Positions 36,722-39,739 of a DNA stretch of 64,000 nt are shown here, piece by piece (within the stretch, counting starts at the first letter, position 1; each line of letters begins with the position of its first letter). The notes under the pieces are model-generated. The model searched no databases and was not told where the DNA came from. It was given only the letters and a program-made list of their open reading frames with translations. Source of the DNA: Candidatus Micrarchaeota archaeon. Lineage in GTDB: Archaea > Micrarchaeota > Micrarchaeia > Micrarchaeales > Micrarchaeaceae. Both the position numbers and the translations under genes were made by a program. Where the stretch lies: positions 1 through 64,000 of the forward strand of contig DAHWIF010000008.1 of NCBI GenBank assembly GCA_027345565.1. Direction: 5' to 3'.

Positions 36722-37038
36722 TAAATCACGCGATTCGTGTTGATATCCTCCCGCCCATAAGCGGTATGGGCTCCCTCCGCATTTTGCAGAGGCCGTGTTT
36801 CATCTGTCAGCGAGACCAATCCCTTCCGAGACCTTTTGGCAGGGGTTATGGCGAACAGGCACGCACCCCTGGGAACCTATTTACTCGCAAGGTCTATCCG
36901 ACCCCGTTCCTCTTTGAGTATAATGTCGTCATCAATATTTATATGTCTTTTGTGGTTTTGCGCGGTTATCTCTCATCCCACCAATAAAGCGGTCTATCTA
37001 AAGAGGGAGCCGATTCATGCGGAGCGGCGTATGCAAGG

Positions 37039-38130
37039 TTATCTTACAAAAATCCTCTTCACGACCTTGCTCGGGCTGTCCATATCCCCGTGTTCGCTAA
37101 GGAACCCCTCGACACCCAGCATCCTGGCAAGCCTGAAAAGCAGCCGAGCGCCCCTCGGCCCTAGGCTGGAATAATATCGATGTATCGCCCTGTGCATCTG
37201 GAGGTCGGCCCAGTATCTCTTGCGCCACATCCTTTCGTACATAGAGAGCGGCGCGCCATTCCTGAGGTGGTTTATTATGGATTCTGCTGCTGTTTTGGCG
37301 CAAAGGGCTCCGAAAACAAGCCCGCCTCCTGTGGTCGCCTTGACCTGCCCGGCAGCGTCTCCGACGAGCAGCACATTGCCCTTGACGGTTGTTTTCCTAG
37401 CCTGGAGAGGTATCATGCTCGCCAGGCCGGATTCTTTCGTTGCGCCCCTTATCTCCTCTGATACGATATTGTTCTTTATGAACGTATTGAATACCGAGAG
37501 GCTGTTGCGCCTGGTGCGCATCCACTCTCCGATTCCGACCTCGAGGACCAATTCCGAATGCGGCACGGTCCAGCCGAAGAACCTCTTTGGCGCATCAGAA
37601 AAGAAAAGCTCACAAGAATGCAGATTGCGTACATCAGCGCCCGAATACTCCGCCTTGTATGTAAGAACATAATCATTTATCTCAGGGAAGCCGAACTGGT
37701 TTGCGACGCAGGATACCACTCCGTCCGCTCCTACGATTATCCTGTCGCGCGAGAGGTCCTTGAGCATATCCCTGTCGGCCTTTTTGCCGAGCTCTATTCT
37801 TGCGCCCTCATCTGCTGCCATTTTGGCGCACAGCCTGGCGAATATCTCCCTGTCGAGCACATACGCCTTGGTCTCCTTCGCCTTCACATTCAGCTTCTCA
37901 TCACCTGCGTAGAGTACAGCGCCATCTAGCGAATTGAGCACTGCGTCGCCGTAATCCACGCCTATGCTGGCCAAACCACCGACGGATACGATTCCTGATG
38001 CCTTGTTGGCGCCTTCTCCGATGCTTTTGCGAGCCTCATACACTGTAACTTCGACCCCATTCCTGGCGAGCTCCCTGGCGAGCACTAATCCTATCACGCC
38101 GCCGCCAACTATGGCGACCTCTCCATCCAT
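37039..38130 (-). CDS. geranylgeranyl reductase-family FAD oxidoreductase
   Basis: IVGGGVIG, GADG, LLVGDAAGQVKATTGGG. Confidence 0.9.
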   Translation of the reverse strand: MDGEVAIVGGGVIGLVLARELARNGVEVTVYEARKSIGEGANKASGIVSVGGLASIGVDYGDAVLNSLDGAVLYAGDEKLNVKAKETKAYVLDREIFARLCAKMAADEGARIELGKKADRDMLKDLSRDRIIVGADGVVSCVANQFGFPEINDYVLTYKAEYSGADVRNLHSCELFFSDAPKRFFGWTVPHSELVLEVGIGEWMRTRRNSLSVFNTFIKNNIVSEEIRGATKESGLASMIPLQARKTTVKGNVLLVGDAAGQVKATTGGGLVFGALCAKTAAESIINHLRNGAPLSMYERMWRKRYWADLQMHRAIHRYYSSLGPRGARLLFRLARMLGVEGFLSEHGDMDSPSKVVKRIFVR

Positions 38131-38195
38131 GTTTTCACCAGCCCCGAACGCTCAACAGTATTTAAACCTTCGCACATATAAATAGTAATACGTCG

Positions 38196-38546
38196 GTGTT
38201 TAAAACGGCAGCAAAACCAAAGAAGGCGAAGGACGGGATGATAACCAACCCTGTGATAAAGATAGAGAACATAGTTGTAAGCGCCGACCTGCACGCCGAG
38301 ATAGACCTCTACCTGCTGTCTAAGAAGGTGAAGGAGGTCGATTACGAGCCAGAACAGTTCCCAGGGGCCATATTCAAGATTGCTGAGCCGAAAGTATCGA
38401 TAATACTCTTCAAGAACGGCAAGATGATATGCACTGGCGCAAGCACCGAGGCGAACATAAAGAGGGCGCTGGATTATGCCGCGAAGGTCATATCGAAGTA
38501 TGTGATAGGGCCGTCTCCAGCAAAGGCGATAGCCCAGAAGTCATAG
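38196..38546 (+). CDS. tbp: single-repeat TATA-binding protein
   Basis: IENIVVS, YEPEQFPG, LFKNGKMICTGA present once only. Confidence 0.88.
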   Translation: MFKTAAKPKKAKDGMITNPVIKIENIVVSADLHAEIDLYLLSKKVKEVDYEPEQFPGAIFKIAEPKVSIILFKNGKMICTGASTEANIKRALDYAAKVISKYVIGPSPAKAIAQKS

Positions 38547-39677
38547 CCTCATTCCCCTTATCGCTGCGTCGTATCGCTTGAAGAAGGACTCCCACGACCA
38601 CGCACTTTTCGCGCTCTTGAGCCCTTCCCTGCCCATCCTGTCAGCTAGGCTCTCATCCTCAACGAGCTGCTGCATGCGCCTGGCCATCTCCATTTCGCTG
38701 CCGACCAAGAAGCCTGTGCGCCCGTGCTTCACGCTTATGGTAGGGCCGCCCTCATTAACGGATATGACTGGCTTGCCGCTCGCCATAGCCTCGAGCGGCA
38801 CAAGGCCCATGTCCTCCATAACTGAGGTAAACAGAACGGCTGTTGCTCTTGAATAGAGGTTTGCCTTCTCCTTCTCTGATATATCGGTTAGCACCGTGAC
38901 GCCGCCGACCTTCGCCGCCTGCCCCTTCACCTTCCTGTAGTAATTGTAATAGAACGGATCCTTCGAAGTCACTCCGCAGAGCACCAGCCTGTATCCCTTA
39001 ACGCGCTTCTTGAAGAGCTGGAACGCCCTTATAGCGTAATCCTGCCTCTTGTTTGGCGAGAACCTTGAGGGGTAGAAGAAGTATTTGCCGTCGCCGTCCC
39101 TCTTGAAATCCCTCCAATCGACGCCCGTTCCGACTATCGTAGCGCCCCTGTTGTAGTACTTCCTGATCCGTGCGAGGGTTATCTCGCTGTTTGTCACAAT
39201 CTTCTCTATCTTCTTGACTACACCCTGGTCCATTCCCTTCACTATCCTGGTGCCAAGCCGGTACACTGGCCTGGAGAGCGGGCTCCTCATCATCATCCTG
39301 TACTCATAAAGGTCGTAGACATCTCTCAGGGGCGTATGGCAGTGCCACAGCACCCTCTCATTGTTGTTCCTTATCCAGTGGCTTGGCCCAATGTGCGCGT
39401 TTATGAGGTCGTAGTCCTCTTTGACCTTGAAGTTGTAGAATGATAGGCCGTAGTCAAGCCCTTGCGACATCCTCCCATACGGAAGAACGCCGGTGAAGCC
39501 TCCCTTGCTTATCGTGCGCACATCGAACTCCTTGAACCCCTCATATGTCCTGTTCCTGTCATACTCTGCGGTGTATATCGGGGTATTGTAGTGCTGCGCA
39601 ATCTTCAGTATTGTGAACTCTGCGCCGCCTCTGAGCGTCAGGTTCGACTGCGCCAGAATCATCTTCAACCTGGGCAT
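38541..39677 (-). CDS. GT4 glycosyltransferase
   Basis: GGAE, SRF...KRQ, EDMGLVPLEAMASGKPVI. Confidence 0.92.
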   Translation of the reverse strand: MPRLKMILAQSNLTLRGGAEFTILKIAQHYNTPIYTAEYDRNRTYEGFKEFDVRTISKGGFTGVLPYGRMSQGLDYGLSFYNFKVKEDYDLINAHIGPSHWIRNNNERVLWHCHTPLRDVYDLYEYRMMMRSPLSRPVYRLGTRIVKGMDQGVVKKIEKIVTNSEITLARIRKYYNRGATIVGTGVDWRDFKRDGDGKYFFYPSRFSPNKRQDYAIRAFQLFKKRVKGYRLVLCGVTSKDPFYYNYYRKVKGQAAKVGGVTVLTDISEKEKANLYSRATAVLFTSVMEDMGLVPLEAMASGKPVISVNEGGPTISVKHGRTGFLVGSEMEMARRMQQLVEDESLADRMGREGLKSAKSAWSWESFFKRYDAAIRGMRL

Positions 39678-39739
39678 AACACGATAGATACGGATGTAAG
39701 CTATAAATATGGAGCATCAAGATACTATAGGCTGGTTTT

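Follow-up and report, generated by a model that had tools for sequence, protein, structure and literature searches.

A stand-alone one-repeat TATA-binding protein gene in Micrarchaeota and its proposed role in a two-chain TBP

Genes and features at the locus

The window, i.e., the 64,000-nucleotide stretch of a Candidatus Micrarchaeota contig that was analysed, carries an open reading frame (ORF) at 38196–38546 on the plus strand. This ORF is called A and has 116 aa when counted from its in-frame GTG. The genes and signals at the locus are as follows.

37039..38130, minus strand: divergent FAD-dependent oxidoreductase gene, the conserved upstream neighbour (Pfam FAD_binding_3, DAO, Lycopene_cycl; homolog in 50/64 A-type loci)
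38159..38167, no strand assigned: TATA-like box TATTTAAAC in the 65-nt divergent intergenic region (seen in the sequence and conserved in orthologs)
38176..38184, no strand assigned: second TATA-like box ATATAAATA, about 25 nt before the ACG (seen in the sequence and conserved in close orthologs)
38195..38198, plus strand: GGTG, a Shine-Dalgarno-like motif 10 nt before the ACG, which contains the in-frame GTG 38196 (genome-wide spacing; orthologs)
38205..38546, plus strand: coding sequence of A from the proposed ACG start to the TAG stop, 113 aa (ORF list; Pfam TBP E 1.8e-25; start placed from orthologs)
38256..38501, plus strand: single TBP repeat from strand S1 to helix H2, which holds Asn22, Phe52, Phe69 and Thr77 (ACG numbering) and the stirrup YEPEQFPG (Pfam match; 64-row alignment of A)
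38541..39677, minus strand: convergent family-4 glycosyltransferase (GT4) gene, the conserved downstream neighbour, with a 6-nt overlap with the stop of A (Pfam Glycos_transf_1, E 7e-31)

The PF00352 repeat of TATA-binding protein (TBP) covered residues 21–102 of A and profile positions 2–85 of 85 in one stretch only, with a score of 89 bits against a cut-off of 22.9. A has one repeat and not the two tandem repeats of a TBP. The NCBIfam models of full-length TBP matched A over half of their length, the N half about as well as the C half, and the scores were 84–88 bits against cut-offs of 181–270. The first-pass annotation had described one intact TBP repeat with the motifs NIV, YEPEQFPG and LFKNGKMICTGA and with both DNA-kinking Phe residues. 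The whole PF00352 repeat, every one of the motifs and both Phe residues were present in A, and the Asn and Thr contacts were retained as well. The same annotation held that A is boxed in without room for a second repeat. This description was accurate, for the oxidoreductase gene ends at 38130, 65 nt before the ORF, and the last 6 nt of the ORF are shared with the GT4 gene. Full-length orthologs at this locus had been named as the finding that would speak against a stand-alone half-TBP. They were looked for, and a second repeat-bearing ORF was found at 0/57 orthologous loci (L032–L088; flanks of about 4 kb on either side, or as far as the contig reached). The 57 contigs belong to Candidatus Micrarchaeota, except for a few evidently mislabelled bins. 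The observation of a stand-alone half-TBP at 38196–38546 is confirmed.

In the Logan contigs of the probable source sample, the word depth rose about ten-fold (from about 15 to about 150) at 38346–38440, inside the conserved TBP core. This rise shows that the sample contains several TBP genes of Micrarchaeota whose core words are identical. No RNA run with the stretch was found, and contigs from two metatranscriptome runs of the same study gave no match to 37000–39700; neither result bears on expression.

Start codon and upstream signals

The comparison of orthologs indicated that A probably begins at the ACG codon at 38205–38207 and not at the GTG at 38196. The start was placed there because of the pattern of ACG, ATG and stop codons in the orthologs, the spacing of the GGTG motif and the out-of-frame position of the GTG. 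The arrangement GGTG-N5/6-ACG was in frame at 37 of 65 distinct A loci. The ACG position was occupied by ATG in three loci and by ATA in one, and an in-frame stop immediately preceded the ACG codon in 12 loci. The conserved N-terminus of the A orthologs (T-A-[AS]-K) starts at the ACG codon, and many A loci have no ATG, GTG or TTG until the middle of strand S1. The GTG at 38196, which was the start called first, belongs to the GGTG motif, and many orthologs have it in another frame.

The position of GGTG before the first ATG of long ORFs in the window's genome (102 occurrences, 712 ORFs) had its peaks at −9 (36) and −10 (13). Among the A orthologs, GGTG lies 9 nt before the ACG in 38 loci and 10 nt before it in 11 others, which is the usual Shine-Dalgarno spacing of the genome. 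The upstream pattern at loci L031–L088 was GGTG(A/T)T followed by 3–4 nt and ACG. The 16S 3' end, which is needed for the anti-Shine-Dalgarno reading, was not found in the window's assembly. We also weighed, and rejected, a programmed frameshift that would begin at the out-of-frame GTG; most orthologs have no slippery sequence there, and initiation at ACG is simpler. ACG would be a non-canonical initiation codon conserved across one archaeal family, and gene callers would misplace the start of A if this codon is used.

TBP genes in the window's genome and across Micrarchaeota

The window's genome (G000) has 600 kb in 16 contigs and is 84% complete. The count of TBP homologs that had been proposed as a check gave two one-repeat genes and zero two-repeat genes. 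The Pfam search returned exactly two TBP repeat matches, which were on different contigs and each in an open frame of 111–126 aa, and no two-repeat TBP was found by this search in the assembly. The absence of a full-length TBP rests on the complete relatives, because G000 is only 84% complete. The second one-repeat gene, called B, is a 104-aa ORF on the minus strand of contig C11 (G000:C11:20787-21101); it is unlinked to A, and the two proteins are 46% identical. The genome also has one ordinary TFB gene with two cyclin repeats. TATA-like hexamers were 6–12 times enriched at −48 to −18 of the ORFs of G000. Only 2 of the 20 top enriched hexamers were palindromic and the others were ordinary TATA-like words, so that the search for a palindromic bias of the TATA boxes in G000 was uninformative.

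The window's genome and 40 relatives were compared, and two TBP matches at unlinked places were found in 23 of the 25 genomes of the window's family (f1). One of the remaining f1 genomes (57% complete) had a single match, and the other (G021) had two single repeats and a canonical fused ORF. The single-contig genomes G010 and G020 have two unlinked genes each, and no further TBP repeat was found in them even at E ≤ 10. A and B are far apart in such single-contig genomes, e.g., by 115 kb in G010. A canonical two-repeat ORF beside single repeats was seen in 2/41 genomes, i.e., at L003 (G021:C43) and L130 (G029:C77, a 3.7-kb contig). These two-repeat TBPs are of the FPGL..R and SGK type and fall outside the Micrarchaeota repeat clade; they look foreign and may be mis-binned or horizontally acquired.

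The search was extended to the class with 121 genomes that were at least 85% complete, counting also the window's genome (84%) and the unpublished G104, on which no conclusion depends. No other class was found in the phylum. Exactly one TBP repeat was present in 54 of the 121 genomes. The single-contig genomes G032 and G035 had one repeat each, and no other repeat was found in them at E ≤ 10. Two-repeat genes occurred in 29/121 genomes (families f5, f10, f13, f14, f16 and f19), with adjacent repeats in one ORF of 187–223 aa wherever the matches were listed. Another 36/121 genomes had two or more matches, either in separate ORFs or among matches listed in part. The Pfam search found no TBP repeat in 2/121 genomes. 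These were G057 (f9, 93% complete, 9 contigs) and G085 (f4, 91% complete, 7 contigs), where an assembly gap or sequence divergence is possible. In about half of the sampled Micrarchaeota, the sole TBP homolog is a one-repeat protein of about 100 aa, which could form the TBP saddle only as a homodimer. The homodimeric symmetric TBP that had been suggested at first is hence strongly implied for the relatives with only one such gene, and A itself may form A:A or A:B.

Within family f8, the genomes of one genus carry two or three genes for one-repeat TBPs (G065, G071, G074, G116 and G122). Three unlinked single genes are found in G065:C1, and G071:C62 (L155) has two in separate ORFs 1 kb apart. 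The tandem single genes of f8 are a possible intermediate between the single and fused forms.

Sequence constraint and function-bearing residues

Conservation and dN/dS within Micrarchaeota, which had also been proposed as a check, were evaluated on an 81-codon core. The median pairwise dN/dS was 0.055 for A (516 usable pairs with 0.1 < dS < 2, of 1596) and 0.087 for B (53 usable of 136 pairs), and the contact residues were kept. Both A and B are under strong purifying selection. N22, F52, F69 and T77 of A were invariant or nearly so in the 64-row alignment of A. Among 80 Micrarchaeota one-repeat proteins, the Asn was kept in 79, each Phe in 80 and the Thr in 77. We take these positions to correspond by homology to N69, T124, F99 and F116 of the yeast protein, and their roles in minor-groove contact, DNA kinking and TFIIB/TFB binding are presumably those seen in the yeast and Pyrococcus complexes.

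The exact YEPEQFPG was present in 80/80 Micrarchaeota single-repeat proteins, compared with 9/134 canonical N repeats and 65/137 canonical C repeats. The YEPE stirrup of the canonical C repeat is assumed here, from yeast genetics, to be the binder of TFB/TFIIB. On sequence alone, A has such an acidic stirrup. Furthermore, A has a highly conserved signature of its own, with I for F/Y at the start of S1, NIVV, DLHA, IILF and, in H2, YAAKVIS. The f1 B protein has diverged in the S1 interface strand, where VNIVANTALN replaces the ENIVASADLG of sole single-repeat proteins. The main gene of the f3 genomes that also carry A has the same sequence as where it is the sole TBP, and its S1 strand has not diverged like that of f1 B.

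Synteny and phylogeny of the repeats

B is adjoined by L21e, Rpo4-like and DUF655-like genes, and L21e was found at 14/17 B loci. L21e was likewise the neighbour of 14/15 main single genes of f3, of 19/22 single genes of other families and of all fused TBP genes examined (10/10). A is adjoined by GT4 at 62/64 A-type loci and at 5/6 A-like loci of the sister family f3. According to FastTree (400 repeats, 83 columns) and IQ-TREE (134 repeats × 83 columns), the Micrarchaeota repeats form one clade apart from the canonical N and C repeats, and this clade includes the single repeats and both repeats of the fused Micrarchaeota genes. The SH-like support of the clade was 0.97 in FastTree. In IQ-TREE, for which SH-aLRT/aBayes values on the best tree reached are given, it was 59/0.80, with the two repeats of one further protein inside. 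Within the window's order (99.7/1), the A-type repeats (f1 and the second gene of some f3 genomes) were apart from the B group, and f1 B nested inside the f3 main single repeats (94.8/0.999).

By gene neighbourhood and repeat tree, B is orthologous to the one-repeat gene that related genomes carry as their only TBP, and A is an accessory paralog. No genome examined had A in the absence of B (or the main gene). The split TBP with a partner elsewhere that had been suggested at first was right about the partner, since B was found on C11. It does not hold in the sense of one gene divided into its N and C halves; A and B are instead paralogous one-repeat genes, and both score as neither N-type nor C-type.

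Origin of the one-repeat state and of the fused genes

Canonical profiles sorted held-out repeats correctly in 33/37 cases for N and in 36/37 for C. A scored 102.8 bits with the N profile and 103.1 bits with the C profile, and the median difference for the Micrarchaeota repeats was +0.6 bits, i.e., there was no preference. Scored by segment, the single repeats were a mosaic, with an N-like H1, a slightly C-like stirrup and other segments that were neutral. An origin of the single repeats as a clean chimera of an N head and a C tail was rejected on account of these segment scores. In the best tree, the N|C split had the Micrarchaeota repeats on its N side (89.9/0.995). The AU tests rejected neither the three-clan tree (p = 0.305) nor the tree that joins Micrarchaeota and C against N (p = 0.271).

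The identity between the N and C repeats was 43–76% (median 59%) in the fused Micrarchaeota TBPs, compared with a median of 38% (n = 132) in canonical TBPs. In the fused genes of f5, f10, f13 and f14 (L117, L120, L121 and L126), a central stretch of about 90 nt was 97–100% identical in DNA between the repeats, and the flanks were 30–80% identical. Such near-identical central stretches are a signature of intragenic gene conversion. The clustering of N and C repeats by lineage was not accepted as a sign of independent fusions, because gene conversion yields the same picture. The pattern suggests that unequal recombination between homogenised repeats would be a simple route between the single and fused forms in both directions.

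A secondary origin of the one-repeat state seems more likely than a relic, because other archaea, including the DPANN-labelled closest full-length relatives, have fused TBPs. The opposite reading is that the one-repeat Micrarchaeota TBP is the surviving form from before the duplication, that the ancestral archaeal TBP was a homodimer and that the N–C fusion found in all other archaea and in eukaryotes came later. The separate Micrarchaeota clade, the lack of N/C differentiation and the three-clan topology are all compatible with a relic, which we nevertheless regard as quite improbable. Even if the one-repeat state is secondary, Micrarchaeota offer a natural living example of the homodimeric stage, and they show that the repeat was duplicated anew, giving A and B in trans and the fused forms in cis.

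Two other repeat arrangements were encountered. The metagenomic proteins P0001 (272 aa), P0002 (376 aa) and P0010 (702 aa) have three or four TBP repeats per chain. A Methanoregulaceae MAG (L094, 3588–4276) has its TBP as two overlapping one-repeat ORFs, which is probably a frameshift of the long-read assembly and not a true split.

Structural models of A and B

The model of the A+B complex had an ipSAE of 0.78, compared with 0.19 for the best of 3 controls. The ipSAE mark was reached by 58/80 solved complexes and by 2/110 mismatched pairs in calibration, and these counts are only a rough guide because custom alignments were used. The contact agreement between model runs was at least 91%, and the pLDDT of the partner was at least 86. 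The predicted interface consists of the antiparallel S1 strands (A16–31 with B9–29) and the H2 helices, which is the packing of the canonical TBP repeats. The A+B model reproduces the TBP saddle and supports pairing as a likeness to solved TBPs, memory of which may explain its pass. Its score gives no preference for the heterodimer over the homodimers, since only A+B was modelled. In the AF2 monomer of A, the S1 residues 7–29 had pLDDT values below 50 and the other residues had values of 76–84. The low-confidence S1 strand of the lone chain resembles an interface strand without its partner, a weak pointer to pairing.

Proposed two-chain TBP and alternative explanations

The reading that we prefer, with a probability of roughly 0.7, is that A is a working subunit of a two-chain TBP whose partner is most likely B. 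Each chain would supply one TBP repeat, and two chains would pair via their antiparallel S1 strands and H2 helices into the ten-stranded saddle that is built by the two fused repeats of canonical TBP. Each chain would bring one Asn/Thr pair to the dyad, one DNA-kinking Phe pair and one acidic YEPEQFPG stirrup for TFB. A would have arisen as an accessory paralog within the window's order. The most likely partner of A in the window's genome would be the unlinked B on contig C11, and the ortholog of B in related Micrarchaeota would have to act as a homodimer where it is the sole TBP. We infer that A dimerises, binds TATA, recruits TFB and takes B as its partner, and A:B is only weakly favoured over A:A. 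In the f3 genomes with both genes, the main homodimer probably still works, because the main gene keeps the sequence of a sole TBP beside A; in these genomes, A may have a specialised role or may not be needed. Initiation at ACG would point to a lower output of A than of B, and such an imbalance agrees poorly with an obligate 1:1 heterodimer.

The A:A homodimer could instead be an alternative TBP isoform that serves a subset of promoters or some conditions, with B:B as the general TBP. The genome would then resemble haloarchaea, which have multiple TBP paralogs. In the relatives that carry a single gene, a one-repeat Micrarchaeota TBP is evidently sufficient by itself, and A keeps all DNA- and TFB-contact residues, its own conserved signature and its own conserved locus; moreover, the main gene is unchanged in the f3 genomes that also carry A. 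However, only a single TFB gene is available with which initiation could be diversified, every examined genome with A also has B or the main gene, and the divergence of the f1 B strand S1 from ENIVASADLG to VNIVANTALN would be expected if B had co-adapted to A. We therefore consider a separate A:A isoform unlikely. The modulator of TBP that had also been suggested at first would stand outside the initiating TBP and would cap B or compete with it, either as a heterodimer of altered DNA affinity or as a decoy for TFB. Its accessory nature, its absence from many related genomes and the sub-stoichiometric synthesis suggested by the weak ACG start would suit A to such a role. A decoy would be free to lose the Phe, Asn and Thr residues, yet these were near-invariant in the 64 A sequences at a dN/dS of 0.055, which makes the modulator very unlikely.

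An artefact, i.e., a truncated pseudogene, a mis-assembly across the conserved core or a frameshifted full-length TBP, was also weighed. The Logan contigs of the probable source run break at 38346–38440 and no single contig spans A, but the three contig pieces tile with zero differences. The arrangement of the oxidoreductase gene, a one-repeat A and GT4 recurs in independent MAGs, including long single-contig genomes. In addition, the strong purifying selection on A and the missing second repeat at every one of the 57 orthologous loci speak against an artefact, and its probability is negligible.

Significance and comparison with known systems

TBP is a textbook pseudo-symmetric protein that is thought to descend from a homodimer. 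The one-repeat Micrarchaeota TBP has an ordinary fold, and its architecture and distribution are unusual; one-repeat TBPs are the rule at a conserved locus in Micrarchaeota. Three states are seen at the same conserved locus within a single archaeal phylum, namely a lone one-repeat gene, a pair of unlinked one-repeat paralogs and fused genes with gene conversion. The direction of archaeal promoters is set by TFB and the BRE, and this would hold for the two-chain TBP as well. With natural proteins, it can be tested whether a perfectly symmetric TBP binds TATA and recruits TFB, how the promoter direction is set when the TBP stirrups are identical and how asymmetry rises after duplication. The public annotation of these proteins is 'hypothetical protein' at NCBI and plain TBP at JGI. 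No report of a one-repeat TBP as the sole TBP was found in the openly accessible literature searched. In the text available from each, a comparative paper on DPANN lists TBP merely as present (PMC8407392), and a 2026 poxvirus paper mentions a hypothetical monopartite TBP prototype (PMC12917281).

Canonical archaeal TBP of known structure (1mp9, 2z8u, 1pcz, 1ais and 1d3u) shares with A the repeat sequence (E 3e-37 to 4e-34) and the predicted fold. The identity between A and the repeats of solved TBPs was about 40–50%, with 56–70 bits per repeat. A keeps the Asn, the Thr, both Phe residues and the acidic stirrup, and its predicted two-chain saddle has the same S1–S1'/H2 packing. Canonical TBP has two fused repeats, whereas A has one repeat per polypeptide that is neither N-type nor C-type, and the lineage signatures FPGAI.K and LFKNGK of A take the place of FPGL..R and F.SGK in the canonical repeats.

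DPANN archaea such as Nanoarchaeum have split genes. In these systems, one function is likewise obtained from two unlinked genes in a reduced genome. However, the split genes are different halves of one ancestral gene, whereas A and B are paralogs that each carry the same module. The fused Micrarchaeota TBPs (f5, f10, f13, f14, f16 and f19) share the repeat clade and the signatures of A and B and the L21e locus of B, but they carry two repeats in one chain, with gene-converted central stretches.

Precedents are the TbpA of Halobacterium and the proteins of about 95 aa in Thermococcales, which are described, in the text available from Brindefalk et al. (2013; PMC3597702), as stand-alone single-TBP-domain proteins and not as mis-annotated halves. 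The same text states that these Euryarchaeal monopartite proteins occur alongside full-length TBP, that TbpA is non-essential and that the Thermococcales proteins, whose function is unknown, have diverged strongly from TBP (PMC3597702). Full-length TBP did not accompany the one-repeat genes in G000, G010, G020, G032 and G035, and A is not strongly diverged from TBP. Judged by that description, A and B are set apart from the Euryarchaeal monopartite proteins, because they resemble canonical TBP closely (89 bits to Pfam for A) and no other TBP homolog was found in their genome.
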